From Candidatus Eremiobacteria bacterium (GTDB taxonomy: Bacteria; Vulcanimicrobiota; Vulcanimicrobiia; Vulcanimicrobiales; Vulcanimicrobiaceae), in NCBI GenBank assembly GCA_963758295.1, contig CAVWUU010000004.1, positions 800,001-864,000 on the forward strand: DNA of 64,000 bases, given 5' to 3'. Below, piece after piece: positions 8,486-16,875 of the stretch. Under the pieces are notes generated by a model, which did no database searches, was not told the origin of the DNA, and worked only from the letters and a program-made list of their open reading frames with translations. The translations under genes and the position numbers were made by a program. Each line of letters starts with the position of its first letter. Positions within the stretch are counted from its first letter, which is position 1.

Positions 8486-9133
8486 CTACTGAAACTCGAA
8501 CTCCGCGAGGTTCTTTTCGATCTTCCGCTTCACGCGCTGCAGAGCGTTGTCGATCGACTTCACGTGACGGCCGAGGTCACGAGCCATCTCCTGGTAGCTC
8601 TTGCCCTCGAGGTAGGACTCAAGCACCTGCGATTCCAGCTCGGAAAGATTTTGGCGAATGCGCTGCCGGATGTCGTCGGAGACTTCCTGCGTTACGACCA
8701 GTTCCTCGGGATCCGAGGTTTTCTGCGACGCCATAACGTCGAGCAGCGTACGTTCGCTGTCCTCGTCGTAAATCGGCTTGTTCAGCGAGATGTACTGGTT
8801 GAGCGGAATGTGCTTCTGACGCGTCGCGGTCTTGATGGCCGTGATGATCTGGCGCGTGATACATAACTCCGCGAACGCGCGAAAACTCGAAAGCTTGTCC
8901 GCTTTGAAGTCGCGCACGGCTTTATAGAGGCCGATCATACCTTCTTGGATGATGTCCTCGCGGTCCGCACCGATCAGGAAGTAACTCTTGGCTTTGATCC
9001 GGACGAAATTTTTGTATTTGTTCAGGAGATACTCCATCGCCAGGTTGTCGCCCGATTTCGCGATGGCAACGAGATCTTCGTCCGCCCGCTCGTTGTACTC
9101 CAAACCATCCGAAACGGGATGGGTCATAGCCAT
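8486..9133 (-). CDS. sigH: RNA polymerase sigma factor SigH (sigma-30 family)
   Basis: KAKSYFLIGADREDIIQEGMIGLYKAVRDF, FAELCITRQIITAIKTATRQKHIPLNQYISL and KSIDNALQRVKRK are SigH-specific; syntenic after rlmB. Confidence 0.95.
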   Translation of the reverse strand: MAMTHPVSDGLEYNERADEDLVAIAKSGDNLAMEYLLNKYKNFVRIKAKSYFLIGADREDIIQEGMIGLYKAVRDFKADKLSSFRAFAELCITRQIITAIKTATRQKHIPLNQYISLNKPIYDEDSERTLLDVMASQKTSDPEELVVTQEVSDDIRQRIRQNLSELESQVLESYLEGKSYQEMARDLGRHVKSIDNALQRVKRKIEKNLAEFEFQ

Positions 9134-9211
9134 AGTATTTTGTAAGCCTCGTGGTGTCGATACGCCGAAAAAACGCAGGCCGTAGCCCGTCGAACGCGGC
9201 ACATCCACGCA

Positions 9212-9240
9212 ATTATAGGAGGGGGTCCTCCTCCCGTCAA
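9212..9240 (-). promoter_or_regulatory. sigma70/SigA promoter for sigH
   Basis: Minus strand TTGACG (9240-9235), 17-nt spacer, TATAAT (9217-9212). Confidence 0.85.
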
Positions 9241-9315
9241 GCGTATTCCGCGGAGGCTTTTTGCTAAGCTAGCAGTTCGAATTTGGGCCAAGCTGCTGAG
9301 GAAGCAGTGCCCTGC

Positions 9316-10167
9316 TTAGCCGGAGACCCGGGCGGCCTCACGTTGCCGGAGCACTTCATACAGTAGGACGCCGGCAGCCACGGAAGCGTTGAGCGATTCG
9401 GTCTTGCCCCGCATTGGGACGCTGACCAGGTAATCGCACTCGCGACGGACCAGCTGCGCCAGCCCTTCGCCTTCAGCGCCAATAACCAAAGCCAGATCCC
9501 GGTCGAAATCGGCTTCGCCCATGGGCACGGACCCTTCTCCGGCATCGGCGCCCGCGATCCAGATTCCGGCCTTCTTTAGGGTTCGGATCGTTTCGTTAAT
9601 GTTGGACACCCGCACGACCGGGAGGTACGTTGCCGCGCCCGCGGCGGCTTTCCGGACGGTGGCATTCACGCCGGCGGAGCGCCGCTCAGGAAGGACGACT
9701 GCCGTGGCGCCCGAGCACTCAGCCGTGCGGATGATTGCACCTACGTTGTGCGGATCGGTGAGGTGGTCAAGGAGCACGAAGAGCGCCGGAGAGGTCCCGC
9801 GTTCCCTCAGGACCTCGTTTAGGTCGGCGTATTGGAACGGCGGCGCCATGGCGACGACGCCCTGATGCGTTTTGAACGGAAGCTGCGTGAAGAATCCACG
9901 ATCCTCGAAACGCACGGGGATGTTGCGTTCTTTCGCATCGGCGATGATCTTGCGCAGCAGCGGATCGCGTTTGCGTTCGTCGGATACGTGAATGCCGCGC
10001 AACGGTTCGTCCGCATTGAGCGCTTCTTCCACGACGTGAATGCCGTACATCACGTCATCGAAATCGAGTTTTGGTTTCGGCCGGCGCGGCGCACCGCCGC
10101 CGAACTTCGGCTTCGGTCTGCCGCCTTTCGGCTGATCGCTCGACCGATCTACGCGACGACGGTCCAA
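9316..10167 (-). CDS. rlmB: 23S rRNA (guanosine-2251-2'-O)-methyltransferase RlmB
   Basis: HQGVVA, DHLTDPHNVGAIIRTA, LVIGAEGEG and ESLNASVAAG SpoU motifs; TTG start at 10167 after a G-rich RBS. Confidence 0.92.
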   Translation of the reverse strand: MDRRRVDRSSDQPKGGRPKPKFGGGAPRRPKPKLDFDDVMYGIHVVEEALNADEPLRGIHVSDERKRDPLLRKIIADAKERNIPVRFEDRGFFTQLPFKTHQGVVAMAPPFQYADLNEVLRERGTSPALFVLLDHLTDPHNVGAIIRTAECSGATAVVLPERRSAGVNATVRKAAAGAATYLPVVRVSNINETIRTLKKAGIWIAGADAGEGSVPMGEADFDRDLALVIGAEGEGLAQLVRRECDYLVSVPMRGKTESLNASVAAGVLLYEVLRQREAARVSG

Positions 10168-10562
10168 GTGGTCCCCTTTCCCCAAAGTGCTTTGCACTTC
10201 GGGGACCCCAGAGCTTTAACAGCACTGCGCGCTTCGCGCTGCGCGCCCCCACGGGCAAAGCCCGCGGGTCCCCACTTCACGACAAGACGGTCCAAGTGGT
10301 CCCCTTTCCCCAAAGTGCTTTGCACTTCGGGGACCCCAGAGCTTTAACAGCACTGCGCGCTTCGCGCTGCGCGCCCCCACGGGCAAAGCCCGCGGGTCCC
10401 CACTTCACGACAAGACGGTCCAAGTGGTCCCCCTTTCCCCAAAGTGCTTTGCACTTCGGGGACCCCAGAGCTTTAACAGCACTGCGCGCTTCGCGCTGCG
10501 CGCCCCCACGGGCAAAGCCCGCGGGTCCCCACTTCACGACAAGACGGTCCAAGAGGTCCCTT
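10158..10562. repeat. tandem repeat: 3 copies of a 128-bp structured unit plus a partial copy in the cysS 3' end
   Basis: Copies start at 10158, 10286 and 10414 (this one has an extra C, 129 bp), with a partial copy at 10543. Units are otherwise identical and contain several hairpins (CCCCAAAGTGC-TTT-GCACTTCGGGG, CGGGC-AAA-GCCCG, GGGGACCC...GGGTCCCC). Confidence 0.95.
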
Positions 10563-11979
10563 CCTTTGAGTCTTTGATGGCGATGCCGCAGCGCATGAGG
10601 GCGTCGCGGAGGCGGTCGGAGGCGGCGAAATCTTTGCGCTCGCGCGCTTCACGCCGCACGTTGATGACGTTTTCGAGGGCTTGTTCGGGCGTTTCGCCGT
10701 TGAACGGAATTTCCGTGCCGAGTTCGGCGCGTAAGCGCTCCAGCAAATCGACCGGCAACAGGGCTTCGGCTTCTTTAAGCCACTCTTCGTTCGGTTCGAG
10801 TCCGAGCAGCCACAGCGCGCGTTCGAATTCGCAACGGCCGCCGGCGTTCTCCACAACCGCCCATTGAAGCAGTTCAGCGAGCGCAACCGACGTATTCATA
10901 TCGTCGCTCAACGCAGCTTCCATCTTTGGCAGCAGTGTTTGCTCGTCGCGCTTCGGCAGCACCGGATCGAACGGAACGAGACGCCGGTACGTCTTCTTCA
11001 ACCGATCCAGCGTCATCATCGATGCCGCAAGCGACTCGTCGGTAAAGTTCATTACCTTGCTGTAGCCCGTCGATAAAAACGTCAAGCGAATCGCCTGCGG
11101 GTCGTGCCGCGCAACCAAGTCCGAAAGCGGCTCGAAATTGCCCAGCGATTTGGACATCTTGCGTCCGTCGAAATTTAGCAAACCGCCGTGAACCCAGAAG
11201 TTCGCCATTGGCGGATGACCCATGAGCGGCTCGCTTTGCGCGATTTCATTTTCATGGTGCGGAAAGATCAAATCCGCGCCGCCGCCGTGGATATCGAATC
11301 CCATGCCGTCGGGGTCGAGCAATGTTTTAGACATTGCCGAGCACTCGATATGCCAGCCGGGGCGTCCTTCGCCATATCCCTCAAACGTCCAGAACGGCTC
11401 ACCGGGTTTGGCAAATTTCCACAGGGCAAAATCGAGGGGGTTTTCTTTATGCTCGTCGACTTCGATGCGCGCGCCCGCTTCGAGCTCTTCGATGTTGCGA
11501 TTGCTCAGCTTCCCGTAAGCCGGAAACGTGCTGACGCGATAATAGATGCCGTCTTGCGAAACGTAGGCGTGTCCGCACTTTAGCAGCTCGAGGATCATCG
11601 CTTGAATCTGTGCGATGTACTTTGTTGCGTACGGTTCGACGTCGGGGTCGCGAACGCTGAGTTTCTTCATCGAAGCTTTGAAGCTGCGATAAAAACCCAT
11701 GACTATTTCGTGCCAGTCTTCGCCGGTTTCGCGCGCGCGGTTGATGCTGCGATCGTCGATGTCGGTAACATTCTGAACGTAGGTTACGTCGTAACCGCTA
11801 TGTTCCAGAAACCGGCGCAGCAGGTCGAAAAACAAGAACGAACGCGCGTGGCCCAAATGCGCTTCAGCCGACGGCGTGAGCCCGCAAACGTAAATACGAA
11901 CGTCCCGGCCGCGCAGCGGCTTGAACGTCTCGGTCTTCCGGGTGCGAGTGTTGTAGAGTCTTAAATCACCCACGACCAC
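10534..11979 (-). CDS. cysS: cysteine--tRNA ligase
   Basis: YVCGLT, HLGH (HIGH motif), NVTDIDD, GRPGWHIECSAM, DIHGGGADLIFPHHENEIAQSE, KMSKS. Confidence 0.97.
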   Translation of the reverse strand: MVVGDLRLYNTRTRKTETFKPLRGRDVRIYVCGLTPSAEAHLGHARSFLFFDLLRRFLEHSGYDVTYVQNVTDIDDRSINRARETGEDWHEIVMGFYRSFKASMKKLSVRDPDVEPYATKYIAQIQAMILELLKCGHAYVSQDGIYYRVSTFPAYGKLSNRNIEELEAGARIEVDEHKENPLDFALWKFAKPGEPFWTFEGYGEGRPGWHIECSAMSKTLLDPDGMGFDIHGGGADLIFPHHENEIAQSEPLMGHPPMANFWVHGGLLNFDGRKMSKSLGNFEPLSDLVARHDPQAIRLTFLSTGYSKVMNFTDESLAASMMTLDRLKKTYRRLVPFDPVLPKRDEQTLLPKMEAALSDDMNTSVALAELLQWAVVENAGGRCEFERALWLLGLEPNEEWLKEAEALLPVDLLERLRAELGTEIPFNGETPEQALENVINVRREARERKDFAASDRLRDALMRCGIAIKDSKEGTSWTVLS

Positions 11980-12644
11980 GCTTCTTCGCTCTGGTCGGGT
12001 TCAATTTCAGCAAGGCGGTTTTCCATGTCATCTAAGCGGCGCTGCAATTGCCGGATCGCGTCGGCATTGGGATCTGGCAGATCGACCTGCGGACGGTCGG
12101 GCACGACCCGTACCGGCTTCCCGTCTTGCGCGACAACGTGCGCCGGAATTCCGACGACGGTTGCGTTGGGCGGCACGTCGCGAACGACCACCGAACCGCC
12201 GCCGACCTTCGCGGAATCACCCACGTAGATTGCGCCGAGTACCGCGGCGTTCACGCCCACGGTCACATTCTTCCCCAGAGTCGGATGACGTTTGCCGTGC
12301 GACAGACTCGTGCCGCCTAGGGTGACGCCCTGGTAAATCGTGCAGCCGTCGCCGACTTCGGCCGTCTCACCGATGACAACCCCCATGCCATGATCGATGA
12401 AGACGTTTTGTCCGATCTTTGCGCCCGGATGGATTTCGATGCCGGTCAAAAAACGCGCGATGTGCGAAAACCACCGCGGCAAGATCGGCACGCCCATGCC
12501 GTGCAATGCATGGTTGAACCGGTAGGCGGTAATCGCGTGAAAACCCGGATACGACAAGACGACGTCGAGCCAGCCGCGTACGGCGGGATCCCGCTGAAGC
12601 GGGACCCGCAGGTCGTTCATAAACGTCTGCAGCGGCGTGGGCAT
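11961..12644 (-). CDS. cysE: serine O-acetyltransferase
   Basis: RDPA, YPGFHA, TGIEIHPGAKIG, FIDHGMGVVIGETA, KRHPTLG; directly upstream of cysS. Confidence 0.95.
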   Translation of the reverse strand: MPTPLQTFMNDLRVPLQRDPAVRGWLDVVLSYPGFHAITAYRFNHALHGMGVPILPRWFSHIARFLTGIEIHPGAKIGQNVFIDHGMGVVIGETAEVGDGCTIYQGVTLGGTSLSHGKRHPTLGKNVTVGVNAAVLGAIYVGDSAKVGGGSVVVRDVPPNATVVGIPAHVVAQDGKPVRVVPDRPQVDLPDPNADAIRQLQRRLDDMENRLAEIEPDQSEEAWSWVI

Positions 12645-12667
12645 GTCGTTTAGTTTAACCGTTAAAG

Positions 12668-13228
12668 TCAAGGCTTGGTTGAGTCAGGTGGTGTCGATTT
12701 GATGGGCTCGAAGGGCTTGCCGTCGGGACCGTACCGGATCGGTTCGAGCCCACGTCCATGCAAAAGCCGCGAATTTACGGCCCCAATTCGCATCAGCATG
12801 CGGTCGTGCCCGAGCAAGGGGAAAAGCAACTCCAAGGGCGGTCCCTCTTTCTGCCCCGTCAACGCCATGCGGGCGGCCGCCTTTGCATCGGCCGGGTCGA
12901 TGCCAAATTCTGCGCCGATGACCGGGATATCATGCTCTAGGGGCAGCCCGCGCAACTCTGGCTGCGAATCGACGTATTGACCGACGGCATCCAAGAAAAA
13001 CAAGACCTGCCGCGTTCGCAGCCGCTCGAGTTCAAGCGCCGGAATAACGCACGCTTCGGCGCGTAACGCTGCAACCGGCGCGAACGCGTCGTCGGTCGTT
13101 TGCAATTCCTTGCCGTACGCTTCGAGAAACGTGTCGATCCAGCGAAGTGCGGCGTTCGGAGCGGGATCCTCGAGAAATCCCCATCGTTGCATCGCCGTCA
13201 TGAGTTGCGCGTTGCTGACTTGTGCCAT
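12668..13228 (-). CDS. stand-alone protein resembling the C-terminal anticodon-binding domain of glutamyl-tRNA synthetase
   Basis: ARMALTGQKEGPPLELLFPLLGHDRMLMRI matches the GltX C-terminal R-x-A-L-T-G-x3-G-P-x-L...LLG-x5-R pattern. No HIGH or KMSKS motif. AGGGG RBS; occupies the gltX slot between ispF and cysE. Confidence 0.7.
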   Translation of the reverse strand: MAQVSNAQLMTAMQRWGFLEDPAPNAALRWIDTFLEAYGKELQTTDDAFAPVAALRAEACVIPALELERLRTRQVLFFLDAVGQYVDSQPELRGLPLEHDIPVIGAEFGIDPADAKAAARMALTGQKEGPPLELLFPLLGHDRMLMRIGAVNSRLLHGRGLEPIRYGPDGKPFEPIKSTPPDSTKP

Positions 13229-13233
13229 GGCCC

Positions 13234-13707
13234 CTACCGTTCGATGGCGGCAACCGCGTAGGCCGCAATGCCGCTCCCATCGCCCGTATACCCCATGCCT
13301 TCGCTGGTCTTCGCTTTGACGCTCACATCTTCGAGCCCGAGCCCAAGGCGGCGCGCCACGTTCTCGCGCATCGCCGCGATAAAGGGTGCGAGTTTCGGAC
13401 GGTCCACAACAATCGTCGCATCGATGTTGCCGATGCGATATCCCGCTTCACGAAGTTTGAATGCGCACGCTTCCAAGAGCCCCATGGAATCGGCGTCTTT
13501 CCACTGCGGGTCGTTATCGGGAAAATGCGCGCCTAAATCGCCGAGCGCCGCCGCTCCGAGCAACGCGTCGGAAATCGCGTGCGCCACAACGTCGGCATCC
13601 GAGTGTCCCAGTGCGCCGCGTTCGAAGGGAATTTCGATGCCGCCGAGCACCAGCCGCCGCCCTTGGACAAGACGGTGCGCATCAAAACCGTGCCCGAATC
13701 GCGTCAT
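13234..13707 (-). CDS. ispF: 2-C-methyl-D-erythritol 2,4-cyclodiphosphate synthase
   Basis: GHGFDAHRL, GHSDADVVAHAISDALLGA, VKAKTSEGMG. Confidence 0.97.
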   Translation of the reverse strand: MTRFGHGFDAHRLVQGRRLVLGGIEIPFERGALGHSDADVVAHAISDALLGAAALGDLGAHFPDNDPQWKDADSMGLLEACAFKLREAGYRIGNIDATIVVDRPKLAPFIAAMRENVARRLGLGLEDVSVKAKTSEGMGYTGDGSGIAAYAVAAIER

Positions 13708-14663
13708 TCGCGCACGCCCGCGTTTTCATCCCGGCCGGCATAGTGTGAAAATCGCGTTGCGAAAGTTGCGGTGCCGTCGGCGAACGCCTCGAACCGCGCC
13801 GTGAAACCGCGCAGCCGTTCCGACGGAATAAATGCGCGCACCCCAACGCCTTGCGGAAGATCGCGTTCGACGCCGTCGATTCGCGCACCGCGCGATTCGA
13901 GTTCCGTTCGAATGGCTTCCACCAATGCGTCGTCGGCGAAGACTTCGATAAAGAGCACTTCTTCTTCCGACGGCGAGTGCTCCATCCGTTCGCGTAAGAG
14001 CGCTTCGGCGCGCGCGACGTCTTCGGGATTCGTCACCTTGAAGTTCTCCGCTCCCGCGGGCACGACAACGACCTCGATTCCAAGTTGCTCGAGAAGCGCT
14101 GCGTCGTCGGTTGCGTCGACGCCGTTCTTCTGCGCTTGCGCGTGCGCGCGCACCAGATCGTTACGCATTGCAAACTGTGGCGTTTGCGCCGCCCAGAGCT
14201 CCCCGCGCGCGAGCGTTTGGCGCACCGTCATCGTTGCGGCATCGACGCGTTTGATCGTGTCGACGACCGGCGCGGCGAGCACGGCGGCGCGATTGCGCGA
14301 AACCGCATTCATGCCGGAACGCACGTCATGCGCACGAACGAGCGGACGCGCCCCGTCATGCACGAACACCGCATTACAACGCGACGAAAGGCCCAACAGC
14401 GCTTTGTGCGCGCTCTGCTGCCGCGTCTCGCCGCCCGCAACTACTCTCACGGGCTGATGCGGCGCGAGTTGTGCTGCGAGCATTTGCATCGGCTCGATCC
14501 ACTCGTCTTCGGTCGCGATCGCGATTTCTTCGACTTCCGGCATCGCGCCGAAGGTGCGTAACGACCAACCGACGAGTGGCAAGCCCGCTACTTCGACGAA
14601 TTGCTTCGGCCGGCCGAAACGCGTTCCACGGCCCGCTGCAACGATAAGAGCACCCCAGATCAT
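13704..14663 (-). CDS. ispD: 2-C-methyl-D-erythritol 4-phosphate cytidylyltransferase with a C-terminal EF-G domain V-like extension
   Basis: AAGRGTRFGRPKQF, VHDGARPLV, AQTPQ, TDDAAL and NFKVTNPED, followed by about 90 extra residues ending RFSHY. Confidence 0.92.
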   Translation of the reverse strand: MIWGALIVAAGRGTRFGRPKQFVEVAGLPLVGWSLRTFGAMPEVEEIAIATEDEWIEPMQMLAAQLAPHQPVRVVAGGETRQQSAHKALLGLSSRCNAVFVHDGARPLVRAHDVRSGMNAVSRNRAAVLAAPVVDTIKRVDAATMTVRQTLARGELWAAQTPQFAMRNDLVRAHAQAQKNGVDATDDAALLEQLGIEVVVVPAGAENFKVTNPEDVARAEALLRERMEHSPSEEEVLFIEVFADDALVEAIRTELESRGARIDGVERDLPQGVGVRAFIPSERLRGFTARFEAFADGTATFATRFSHYAGRDENAGVRE

Positions 14664-15739
14664 CCGGCTTTATAACTTCCTTTGGGTTTGGCGAAGATCA
14701 AGCGTCCCGCGACGGTTTGCAGCACGCTCGTGACGATGACGTCGGTTGCTTCGCCGATGAGGCGGCGTCCTTGCTCGACGACAATCATCGTTCCGTCCTC
14801 GAGATAGCCCACGCCTTGGTGCGGTTCTTTGCCTTCGCGAATGACCTGCACGTGCAGTTCTTCTCCGGGAAGGACGACGGGCTTCACCGCATTTGCGAGC
14901 TCGTTAATATTCAGCACGGCCACACCTTCGACGTGCGCCACCCGATTGAGGTTATAGTCGTTCGTAACCAACCGGCCTTCGAGCTCCTGCGCCAGGCGCA
15001 CGAGTTTCTGATCGACGCTTCCGGCCGGCAAATCGTCGTAATCGCGTTCGTTGATGTCCAACGATGCGAGTTCTTGGAGGCGAGCCAACACGTCCAAGCC
15101 GCGGCGGCCGCGCGTGCGCTTGATCGGATCCAGCGAATCCGCAATCGCGTGCAGTTCGCGCAACACGAAGCGCGGCACCACTAGCGGGCCCTCGAGAAAG
15201 CCGCTTTGCACGATCTCTACGATGCGACCGTCCACAATTACGGAAGTGTCGACGATCTTGTGCGATCCGCTTGCCACGCCGTTGCGGCTCTTCGAAAACG
15301 GCAGGACCTGCGTCTTTGCGCCGACGCGCGCCCCAAGGTACGCGAAGAAAACGGCGACGATGAAGTAGAGCACGATCGCGACGTAACTTCCTGTGCGTCC
15401 GGCAATGGCACTGAACTCGAAGAGAATCGATTTGATGAGCAGCGCGATGCCGAGGCCCAAAATCAGGCCGATGGCGCCGCCGGCTATCTCCGCGGGCGCA
15501 AGCCGTTCGATCGCCCCTTCGGCGAGATTGAGCTCGTCTTCAAAAAAGCTCTGCGCGAGCGGCGCGACCAGCACGCCGATCACCGCGCCGATTACGGGAG
15601 CGAGAATCAGGAATGCCAACTGCAGGCCTTCGCTGGAAAAGTGCAGCGAGAGCACGTTCAAGTACATCTCGCGGCCCAGCAAAAAACCCGTGATGGCAAA
15701 GACGACGGCGAAAACGGCGCGCAGCACTGCGCCCGACAA
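14660..15739 (-). CDS. membrane PIN/TRAM domain protein (YacL family)
   Basis: N-terminal TM helices, DTSVIVDGRI PIN motif, TNDYNLNRVA, TRAM region GKEPHQGVGYLEDGTMIVVE; syntenic before ispD. Confidence 0.92.
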   Translation of the reverse strand: MSGAVLRAVFAVVFAITGFLLGREMYLNVLSLHFSSEGLQLAFLILAPVIGAVIGVLVAPLAQSFFEDELNLAEGAIERLAPAEIAGGAIGLILGLGIALLIKSILFEFSAIAGRTGSYVAIVLYFIVAVFFAYLGARVGAKTQVLPFSKSRNGVASGSHKIVDTSVIVDGRIVEIVQSGFLEGPLVVPRFVLRELHAIADSLDPIKRTRGRRGLDVLARLQELASLDINERDYDDLPAGSVDQKLVRLAQELEGRLVTNDYNLNRVAHVEGVAVLNINELANAVKPVVLPGEELHVQVIREGKEPHQGVGYLEDGTMIVVEQGRRLIGEATDVIVTSVLQTVAGRLIFAKPKGSYKAG

Positions 15740-15744
15740 ACCCG

Positions 15745-16875
15745 TTACTCGAATGTTACAAACGCTCCGCAGACATCGTTGGCGACGTATCGTCCCCGTT
15801 CGGTGAGGCGCAAGTGATCGCCGCTCACTTCCAGCAGGCCCGCTTCATTATAGGTGCGGACTACCGGCGCATAGCGCTCGAGCACGTCGATGCCGTACCG
15901 CTCTTTAAAGCTTGGCAGGCCGACCCCTTGCGCGGTGCGCAGGGCGAGCATGATCGCTTCACCGGTGCGCCGCAGCCCTTCGAGCTGCTCGCTTTCCGAG
16001 GGGATTGCCATCCCAGCTTCCGCCGCGCTCACGTACTCCTCAAAATCTCGTGAATGCACCGAGCGCACGCCTTTCCGGTACGACGCCGCTCCGACGCCTA
16101 AGCCGATATACTCGCCGTTCGCCCAATAGTTGGCATTGTGAGCGCTTTCGTGTCCGGGCCGCGCGAAGTTGCTGATCTCGTACTGAGCGTAGCCGCCTTC
16201 ACGCAAGGCGGAAATGGCAATCTCATAAAGGTCGGCCTCACGATCCTGATCCATGAACGCACGCGGCTCGCGATCGTGCCACGCCGCATAGGGCGTGCCT
16301 TCTTCGATGGTCAGGCCGTACGTAGAAATGTGGTCGACGCCAAGGGCGATGGCGGAGTCGAGCGTCCGGCGCCAAGATTCCGCCGTCTGCCCCGGGACGG
16401 CAAAAATGAGATCGATCGAAACCGACCGCATCGAAGCAAGGCGCGCCAGTTCCACAGCATCCCGCACTTGCTGCAGCGTATGTTTGCGCCCGAGGGTCGC
16501 GATTTCGGCCGGTTCGAAGGATTGCACGCCGATCGAAACGCGGTCGATGCCGGCCGCGCGGTACGTTCCAAAATCGTCCGGCCGTACCAGCTCGGGGTTG
16601 ACTTCTATCGAGATTTCCCGCATCGGACGTCCGCCGGAAAAGCGCTCGCGCAATCGCGTGACGAGCGAGGCAATCTCCGAGGAGTCATACGAATTCGGCG
16701 TGCCGCCGCCTAAGAAGATCGTTTCCGCGGCTTCGGGCGCTTCGCGCTCGAGTTCGCGCAGCAGTGCTTCGAAGTAGCGCGTAGCCGAACTGCGCCGCAT
16801 CGGCCACTTTGCGAAATCGCAATACGGACAGATGTACGGACAGAACGGGAGATGGACGTAAATGCCGAGGCTCAC
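15745..16875 (-). CDS. hemW: radical SAM heme chaperone HemW
   Basis: YVHLPFCPYICPYCDF, GGGTP, SIGVQSF, YEISNFA, HNANYW. Confidence 0.9.
   Translation of the reverse strand: MSLGIYVHLPFCPYICPYCDFAKWPMRRSSATRYFEALLRELEREAPEAAETIFLGGGTPNSYDSSEIASLVTRLRERFSGGRPMREISIEVNPELVRPDDFGTYRAAGIDRVSIGVQSFEPAEIATLGRKHTLQQVRDAVELARLASMRSVSIDLIFAVPGQTAESWRRTLDSAIALGVDHISTYGLTIEEGTPYAAWHDREPRAFMDQDREADLYEIAISALREGGYAQYEISNFARPGHESAHNANYWANGEYIGLGVGAASYRKGVRSVHSRDFEEYVSAAEAGMAIPSESEQLEGLRRTGEAIMLALRTAQGVGLPSFKERYGIDVLERYAPVVRTYNEAGLLEVSGDHLRLTERGRYVANDVCGAFVTFE

Follow-up and report, generated by a model that had tools for sequence, protein, structure and literature searches.

The 64,000-nucleotide window analysed here (positions 800,001 to 864,000 of contig CAVWUU010000004.1, from a Candidatus Eremiobacteria bacterium) carries, between ispF and cysE, a gene for a 186-residue protein that consists of the anticodon-binding domain (ABD) of a glutamyl-tRNA synthetase (GluRS) followed by a lineage-specific tail. 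We are highly confident that this gene, hereafter the ABD gene, is a catalytically inert, stand-alone descendant of the second GluRS of the ispF-cysE slot. It appears to have taken on a new job after the enzyme half decayed and was deleted in one family of soil bacteria.

The anticodon half of a synthetase

The ABD gene occupies 12668..13228 on the minus strand (186 codons plus stop) and is an intact, ATG-started open reading frame (ORF) whose translation contains ARMALTGQKEGPPLELLFPLLGHDRMLMRI and HGRGLEPIRYGPDGKPF. Just 5' of its start lies a G-rich, Shine-Dalgarno-like stretch (GGTAGGGG), a putative ribosome-binding site. Only 5 nt separate the ispF stop from the ATG, leaving no room for a catalytic domain. 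To judge from the 1092 database proteins that match at E<=0.001 (among 1401 candidates of 102-326 aa) and from the purifying selection described below, the ORF is not a chance frame.

Pfam recognised a single family in the protein, Anticodon_2 (PF19269; E 5.6e-5, 24.0 bits against a cut-off of 23.6), placing residues 28-149 on profile positions 13-138 of 141 (126 of the 141 covered), and found no match to the catalytic family PF00749 in the 186 residues. Close homologues score 24.6-38.2 bits with PF19269. The bacterial GluRS model TIGR00464 (gltX_bact) scored 15.7 bits (cut-off 289.95), aligning residues 33-149 with its positions 348-464 of 470. By its profile match, then, the protein belongs in the Anticodon_2 domain family.

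The AlphaFold2 model, computed from an alignment (A2) of 34 diverse ABD-only sequences, has a mean predicted local distance difference test score (pLDDT) of 78.2 and a predicted template modelling score (pTM) of 0.61. It comprises eight helices, the last of which ends at residue 157, and is of low confidence from residue 151 on, where 10-residue block means are 54-62. The first ~25 rows listed by Foldseek were all bacterial GluRS chains, with a best E of 5.1e-3 at probability 1.00 and none at E<=0.001. VIA-align superimposed model residues 1..157 on residues 326..486 of the non-discriminating GluRS of T. maritima (3afh; Z 13.6, root-mean-square deviation 4.3, 148 aligned), and its matches to T. 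elongatus 2cfo_B (Z 12.9) and to the GluRS chain of the transamidosome 3al0 (Z 12.2) likewise cover model residues 1-157 or 1-161. Class I LysRS 1irx (Z 10.5) and residues 316..468 of T. thermophilus 1j09 (Z 10.1) came lower; the 25 top rows, all at Z>=9.2, are GluRS or class I LysRS, and the next row falls to Z 4.8. In the model, the all-helical body formed by residues 1-157 (12758..13228, minus strand) corresponds to GluRS domains 4 and 5, and residues 158-186 are an appended tail. The protein is not a glutamyl-tRNA synthetase (EC 6.1.1.17), having the helical domains 4-5 and none of the catalytic features. A prediction of the protein as a two-copy complex returned no answer (score 0.00 against a mark of 0.42).

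Much of the first-pass annotation of this DNA is thereby upheld. It had described an intact 186-aa ORF packed between ispF and cysE, as the ORF list and the Pfam and NCBIfam identities of the neighbours bear out; a sequence that follows the GltX C-terminal domains, now matched by both profile and structure; the lack of a Rossmann catalytic domain, in keeping with Anticodon_2 as the only Pfam family; and an extra C-terminal tail beyond the GluRS body, which corresponds to the nearly invariant residues 158-186.

In the 34 diverse ABD-only sequences, 71 of the 186 positions are invariant, tail included. The block common to all bacterial GluRS anticodon domains (residues 120-140, RMALTGQKEGPPLELLFPLLG; 12809..12871, minus strand) is invariant at R120, M121, A122, T124, G125, G129 and F136-G140; it is found in HMMER alignments to 2o5r, 2ja2 and 8jpv, and profile positions 88-148 map to residues 403-463 of T. 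thermophilus 1j09. Positional mapping, by alignment offset, would place the invariant G129 at T. thermophilus residue 444. Another invariant motif, PALELERLRTR (residues 63-73; 13010..13042, minus strand), is lineage-specific: invariant at P63, A64, E66-R71 and R73, it is missing from the canonical GluRS of the same genome, differs in loci L001 and L041, and lies in a low-confidence loop of the model (pLDDT<50 for residues 64-66). The Gly/Pro-rich tail, (G)RGLEPIRYGPDGKPFEPIK... (residues 158-186 and stop; 12668..12757, minus strand), carries His, Arg, Lys and aromatic residues and, with the residue preceding it, is invariant at H157, G158, R159, G160, L161, G167, P168, G170, P172 and F173. 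Searched alone, the tail had no PDB sequence match and no Pfam match at E<=10; its motif occurs nowhere else in the six frames of the window genome, and in five genomes without an ABD gene it was not found (one gave a best E of 0.3, four gave no match). Across the protein, 12 positions are conserved as positively charged, all of them Arg in the window protein.

Descent from a second GluRS of the ispF-cysE slot

The window genome (G000; 3.03 Mb in 6 contigs, 82% complete) encodes a complete GluRS of its own. Its single PF00749 match (353.5 bits, contig C2) lies within a 524-aa full-length GluRS ORF that has its own Anticodon_2 domain (77 bits), and the sole other Anticodon_2 match in the genome is the ABD ORF. 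In this 82% complete genome we found no C-terminally short GluRS, no GluQ/YadB-type gene and no match to the GlnRS-type C-terminal domain PF03950. GatB is present, and aragorn called tRNA-Glu with UUC and CUC anticodons and tRNA-Gln with CUG and UUG. On established pathway knowledge, the canonical 524-aa GluRS is expected to be non-discriminating and to feed GatCAB. In the window's own family (f1), 139 genomes are matched by the ABD protein, and 106 of these carry no more than a single PF00749 match (104 have one, 2 none); there are 2-3 in 22 of 22 genomes of family f3 and 3 in all three of family f2, and genomes with a full-length slot gene have at least two.

We classified 58 slot loci, drawn from those of the genome survey and from 36 further loci fetched for comparison. 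All forms lie in the arrangement ispD-ispF-X-cysE-cysS or in its cysE/cysS half; in genus g2 ispF has moved away, and the slot gene stands directly 5' of cysE-cysS or of cysS. Full-length slot enzymes have intact motifs in all nine cases examined, from f3 (G155), f2 (G168, G151 and G055) and the genera g14 (G089), g42 (G214 and G248) and g34 (G156 and G284); the unpublished G248 (locus L056) repeats the g42 full-length state that is shown also by the published G214. Their intact elements are PSPTG..H(V/T)GG, EDTD, a Cys-rich insertion and KLSKR, and PF00749 scores are 312-322 bits in the six scanned. In genus g28 (three loci, L037-L039), HIGH, EDTD and KLSKR are intact, the Cys-rich insertion (~35-45 aa) is deleted, the tail is missing and the ABD is very divergent (a branch of 1.87 changes per column); the g28 slot gene is a separate, fast-evolving trajectory of the same gene.

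Catalytic decay is seen directly in genus g2. Its five pseudoenzyme loci lack the insertion, KLSKR has become KLSRQ, KLSSA or KLEHD or is absent, EDTD has become DDLE, DDAG or EDTA or is lost, and PF00749 scores are down to 182-226 bits, in two stretches. All catalytic motifs are gone from G291 (g46), and G246 (g48) has lost HIGH and KMSKS and keeps part of the insertion. ABD-only genes make up 40 of the 58 loci, from 24 genera, including one within g2, G011; the g2 frames are short (208-230 aa) in G011, G165, G226, G230 and G252 and at least 468 aa in the other 13 matching genomes. The unpublished genomes G213 (L021), G276 (L060) and G238 (L064) add only extra ABD-only rows.

An IQ-TREE phylogeny of the ABD region (58 rows, 181 columns, LG+C20+F+G4, with ultrafast bootstrap and SH-aLRT; rooted at midpoint for drawing only) places the full-length forms basally. 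A 46-row clade (ultrafast bootstrap 100, SH-aLRT 99) unites all 40 ABD-only genes with the six g46 and g2 pseudoenzymes, and within the pseudoenzyme clade (98/87) the ABD-only G011 is nested among those of g2. The g28 rows carried the label 'PSEUDO' in this tree, which overstates their decay, as their motifs are intact. The ABD-only label requires 3 changes (bootstrap 5-95% range 2-3) against a mean of 15.8 when shuffled, and none of 500 shuffles was as low. As the deletion of a domain is irreversible, truncation must have happened independently at least twice. The part of the insertion kept in g48, which g2 and g46 lack, argues for a second, independent catalytic decay there, seen solely in the unpublished G246 (L052).

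The tail helps to order these events. Its consensus, LHGRGLEPIxYGPxGxPFExI, was seen in all f1 forms examined other than g28 and, in part, in G168 of f2, and is absent from G055 of f2, G155 of f3 and canonical GluRS. As it is found in full-length slot enzymes, the tail arose before the loss of catalysis, while the protein was still a full enzyme. The catalytic half first lost the Cys-rich insertion and the HIGH, EDTD and KMSKS motifs, and its deletion followed. By position, the ABD gene is the orthologue of the second GluRS encoded in the ispD-ispF-X-cysE-cysS slot, and its product can be termed a pseudo-synthetase, with descent from an enzyme, loss of the catalytic residues and purifying selection on the remainder. 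The first-pass annotation had proposed that displacement of gltX left behind an exapted protein with a tRNA-binding or regulatory role; as regards evolution that proposal stands, on positional orthology, intermediates with decayed motifs and purifying selection, and the tRNA-binding or regulatory half is something we infer.

ABD matches occur in 151 of the 301 phylum genomes sampled: 139 of 206 in f1, with 3 of 59 in genus g4 and 0 of 7 in genus g25, all 3 in f2 (36-48% identity) and 6 of 22 in f3, where they are weak; the unpublished genomes G264, G231, G128, G233 and G178 enter only these match tallies and those of PF00749. The 120 homologues listed are 175-202 aa long and 72-90% identical, and 98 of them bear a precomputed PF19269 label (22 do not). 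Their source names include 'Candidatus Baltobacteraceae', 'Candidatus Aquilonibacter' and 'Anticodon binding domain'; the NCBI taxonomy files Candidatus Baltobacteraceae under Vulcanimicrobiaceae, phylum Vulcanimicrobiota. In an Atlas search, 30 of 30 hits were PF19269 clusters, most commonly from Vulcanimicrobiota. A profile search of 1.84 billion representatives returned only 58 clusters at E<=0.001, which marks the ABD-plus-tail type as lineage-restricted.

The searches also brought up unusual entries. Three divergent short database entries, P0130-P0132, look like frameshifted copies of the ABD family. P0176 (146 aa, on a 1.84-Mb contig) and P0175 (160 aa) consist of canonical-type Anticodon_2 alone (121 and 91 bits, respectively) without the tail; from other lineages, they might represent either split gltX genes or GluRS anticodon domains that stand alone. 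In P0135 (440 aa) an ABD-family fragment (profile 62-147) is joined to a GcpE/IspG fragment (PF04551, 197 bits), probably a gene-calling or assembly chimera.

Selection, loss and candidate functions

Substitution rates in the ABD gene are those of its housekeeping neighbours. At 23 orthologous loci compared with G000, the nonsynonymous proportion (pN) is 0.10-0.19 for the ABD gene, 0.08-0.20 for ispF and 0.10-0.19 for cysE, with the synonymous proportion (pS) saturated in these comparisons (0.49-0.81 across the three genes). The ratio omega was taken from five pairs with unsaturated dS (0.72-0.79) and has a median of 0.129 for the ABD gene (range 0.076-0.264), 0.108 for ispF (0.068-0.245) and 0.155 for cysE (0.047-0.265). 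By these rates, the ABD gene is under purifying selection as strong as that on ispF and cysE. In the g2 pseudoenzymes, nonsynonymous change in the catalytic remnant is 1.27-2.55 times that in the ABD part (pS 0.33-0.47), against a catalytic/ABD ratio of 1.10 in the intact g14-g42 pair. This faster change of the remnant indicates that the selected unit is the ABD together with its tail.

Conservation and dN/dS had been proposed as a check at the outset, and the outcome is divided: the gene is kept under purifying selection in other genera and has been cleanly deleted from g25 and most of g4. ispF and cysE lie directly side by side at both g25 loci read and are 65, 180 and 712 nt apart in g4. 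The loss shows that the gene is dispensable there and its role accessory. The 712-nt gap, in G097 of g4 (L047, 2020-2664), holds an unrelated 214-aa ORF with a signal/lipoprotein-like N-terminus.

The only known role of this fold is recognition of the anticodon arm, the GluRS-wide block stays invariant after catalysis is lost, and the 12 positively charged positions and the His, Arg, Lys and aromatic residues of the tail are further features suited to RNA, all of which we count weakly in favour of tRNA binding. In the mechanism that we propose, the separate full-length GluRS, with GatB present and no GlnRS found, would supply both Glu-tRNA(Glu) and Glu-tRNA(Gln). The ABD protein would have a role that involves no aminoacylation and would most likely bind tRNA(Glu), tRNA(Gln) or both in trans at the anticodon arm, with affinity drawn from the conserved recognition block (R120...G140) and the Arg/aromatic-bearing tail. 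It would thereby modulate tRNA use, either handing tRNA to, or holding it for, the non-discriminating GluRS/GatCAB route, or sequestering it. Reportedly, going by the title of Dubois et al. 2009, a free distal domain of E. coli GluRS stimulates a C-truncated GluRS. The overall account, which blends descent from the slot GluRS with tRNA binding in trans, is the best explanation we can offer and on balance a probable one. Its mechanistic part, a trans-acting tRNA(Glx) anticodon-arm binder that may modulate the GluRS/GatCAB route, is tentative, and we rate its chances somewhat below even. That the protein is an autonomous anticodon-specific reader of tRNA(Glu/Gln), given enough affinity by its tail to work alone and serving as a sensor or escort that partitions Glu-tRNA(Glx) among translation, GatCAB transamidation and possibly tetrapyrrole synthesis, seems to us unlikely.

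Several observations weigh against this account. The Pfam score of the window protein exceeds the cut-off by a marginal 0.4 bits, and by VIA-align's own note helical models reach Z of ~13-14 by chance, close to the best value here (13.6); we trust the fold assignment because the gap to unrelated rows, the coverage of the full domain and the sequence match all agree. The 82% completeness of G000 leaves room for a missed short GluRS or GlnRS. The gene has been deleted, with no replacement found, in 7 of 7 sampled genomes of g25 and 56 of 59 of g4. The ABD-only protein is acidic (median isoelectric point 4.97, net charge ~-9 in the 34 sequences), which is unfavourable for an isolated RNA binder; the isoelectric point of the canonical GluRS ABD of the same genome is 7.9 and those of still-catalytic slot enzymes are 5.2-5.4, so that acidity is common to active forms. 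Finally, the most distinctive invariant features, PALELERLRTR and the tail, are not found in ordinary GluRS and could equally bind protein.

This last point leads to the rival that we take most seriously, a protein-binding adaptor or regulator in which the helical body is a scaffold, PALELERLRTR and the tail dock on a protein, and tRNA is not bound; candidate partners may be the canonical GluRS, GatCAB, GluTR, CysRS or CysE. It would explain why the two most conserved lineage-specific features have no counterpart in ordinary GluRS and fits an acidic protein (isoelectric point ~5), a tail modelled at low confidence, as would be the case if it folded on contact with a partner, and a cysE/cysS link that outlasts the rearrangements by which g2 lost the adjoining ispF. 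Yet no partner has been identified, the tail motif is found nowhere else in the genome, the GluRS-wide anticodon block is invariant although catalysis is gone, and direct contact between GluRS and GatCAB is weak where measured, with a KD of 40 uM in H. pylori (PMC3241645); we put an adaptor role clearly below even chances, though nearly as likely as the tRNA binder. The same persistence of the cysE/cysS adjacency might point to a regulator of cysE-cysS or of tetrapyrrole flux, the ABD sensing tRNA or tRNA-like RNA or diverting Glu-tRNA(Glu) to GluTR. The lineage includes phototrophs, and the slot gene is present in each of the 25 genomes that have reaction-centre genes. Against this, the ABD gene and cysE adjoin with no intergenic leader, 9000-16000 has no Rfam match at E<=0.1, the slot gene is present also in G000 and in 114 of the 181 f1 genomes that lack reaction-centre genes, and the association is confounded by phylogeny, 56 of the 67 genomes without the gene being of one genus; regulation of this kind is very unlikely.

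A functionless remnant, its frame kept by chance or by operon polarity or translational coupling, would account for the clean loss in g25 and most of g4, for split matches or an internal stop in G196, G202, G209, G260 and G231, and for the three frameshifted-looking database entries. Against it stand the omega values of 0.08-0.26, equal to those of ispF and cysE, the 71 invariant columns of 186 and the 1092 database homologues, of which the 120 listed are all of 175-202 aa, and coupling alone would not conserve the amino-acid sequence; we hold this to be highly improbable. The first-pass annotation had also raised a split two-subunit GluRS, in which the ABD protein and a separately encoded catalytic subunit form the working enzyme. 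Although the slot is the place of gltX in Firmicutes and in deeper relatives of the lineage, and separate halves of E. coli GluRS can reportedly cooperate, to go by the title of Dubois et al. 2009, the gltX inventory gives this idea no support: the sole PF00749 match in G000 belongs to a full-length GluRS with its own ABD and no short GluRS was found in that 82% complete genome, most f1 genomes matched by the ABD protein have no more than a single PF00749 match, and the intermediates are single polypeptides with decaying catalytic motifs rather than split genes. A split enzyme is thus extremely improbable.

A link of the slot gene to phototrophy was considered in its own right, reaction-centre genes being present in 25 of the 301 genomes, and was rejected on the occurrence of the slot gene in f1 genomes that lack them and in G000. 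All 25 reaction-centre genomes belong to f1. Reaction-centre L/M genes (PF00124) are duplicated in four f1 genomes, G045, G126, G139 and G130, with identical scores and ~26-37 kb apart, and G130 has eight PF00124 matches, split ones included.

Genomic surroundings and comparison with known systems

The ABD gene is the third of five co-oriented, tightly packed genes on the minus strand. The block begins with ispD (13704..14663) and continues with ispF (13234..13707; Pfam YgbB 217 bits, TIGR00151 204 bits), the ABD gene, cysE (11961..12671; TIGR01172 229.5 bits), whose longest ORF abuts the ABD gene stop, and cysS (10534..11979; TIGR00435 434.7 bits), which completes ispD-ispF-X-cysE-cysS. The Rfam scan of 9000-16000 included this block, and its lack of a match at E<=0.1 means that no T-box or other leader was detected there. 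IspD has a C-terminal extension of ~90 aa, of which residues 237-309 match EFG_C (PF00679, E 4.6e-8); in relatives, matches span the extension in g14, g42 and g25 and end at about residue 222-235 in f2, g28, g7 and g4. A tandem repeat at 10158-10560 (128 nt, 3.1 copies, 98% identity) covers the cysS 3' end together with the 5' start of an rlmB-like ORF, and its peptide strings recur across several ORFs; it could be a recent gene-junction duplication or an assembly artefact.

The closest known relatives of the ABD protein are the GltX domains 4-5 of bacteria (PF19269; 3afh/3al0, 2cfo, 1j09). The fold is the same over the whole helical body (Z 10-13.6), both have the R-x-A-x-T-G...G-P-x-L...L-L-G block, and the genomic slot is that of gltX. 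Unlike GltX, the ABD protein lacks the Rossmann and stem-contact domains, HIGH and KMSKS, and cannot aminoacylate; it is also acidic and adds the invariant tail and the ELERLRTR motif. A second GluRS is known from H. pylori, where GluRS2 is a duplicated GluRS specific for tRNA-Gln (PMC2777447, PMC3241645, PMC3927822), and where a G417T change in it alters the choice of tRNA (PMC2777447). The ABD protein resembles the GluRS2 type in its origin from a second copy of GluRS, present alongside another GluRS in a GatCAB user with no GlnRS found, and its G129 recalls G417 of GluRS2 if the mapping by alignment offset holds. GluRS2, however, is an active synthetase, whereas the ABD protein is without the catalytic half.

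Like GluQRS/YadB, which has a non-canonical role, the ABD protein is a paralogue of GluRS that has kept just half of the enzyme, but as a mirror image: YadB keeps the catalytic half and the ABD protein the anticodon half. Free-standing synthetase-derived domains such as Trbp111/CsaA, AlaX and ProX/YbaK are comparable as separate proteins but differ from it in fold and origin. The nearest functional parallel is engineered. By the title of Dubois et al. 2009, the isolated anticodon half of E. coli GluRS is active in trans; that, however, is a laboratory construct with a C-truncated partner, whereas the ABD protein is natural and no truncated partner was found in G000. Free-standing synthetase domains, anticodon-binding ones included, are acknowledged in general terms in a review (PMC5388404). 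Our literature search, which covered sources outside subscription-only papers and supplements, turned up neither a free helical anticodon domain of GluRS nor such a decay series.

Synthetase paralogues that have lost one half are a main source of new tRNA-linked functions, as in GluQRS, HisZ, PoxA, AlaX and YbaK, and for GluRS we know of no such paralogue other than that of the catalytic half. The ABD gene is the complementary half, under selection at housekeeping level in dozens of genera of an almost uncultured phylum; Vulcanimicrobium, of the same family, is a cultured member. Its recognition also matters for annotation: the Joint Genome Institute (JGI) names some members 'glutamyl/glutaminyl-tRNA synthetase', which is misleading, and a synthetase name on ABD-only members would wrongly credit genomes with a second synthetase. 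All stages of the process are alive in relatives, from an active second GluRS through an insertion-deleted enzyme and a motif-dead pseudoenzyme to the domain alone and its complete loss, and the order of events and the moment at which the new function arose can therefore be tested biochemically with natural proteins. Should the protein prove to be an autonomous tRNA reader, nature would for the first time have supplied an equivalent of the 'free distal domain' engineered from GluRS, and one that mirrors GluQRS, and the surviving intermediates would allow the path from an enzyme to a non-enzymatic RNA-binding factor to be reconstructed step by step.

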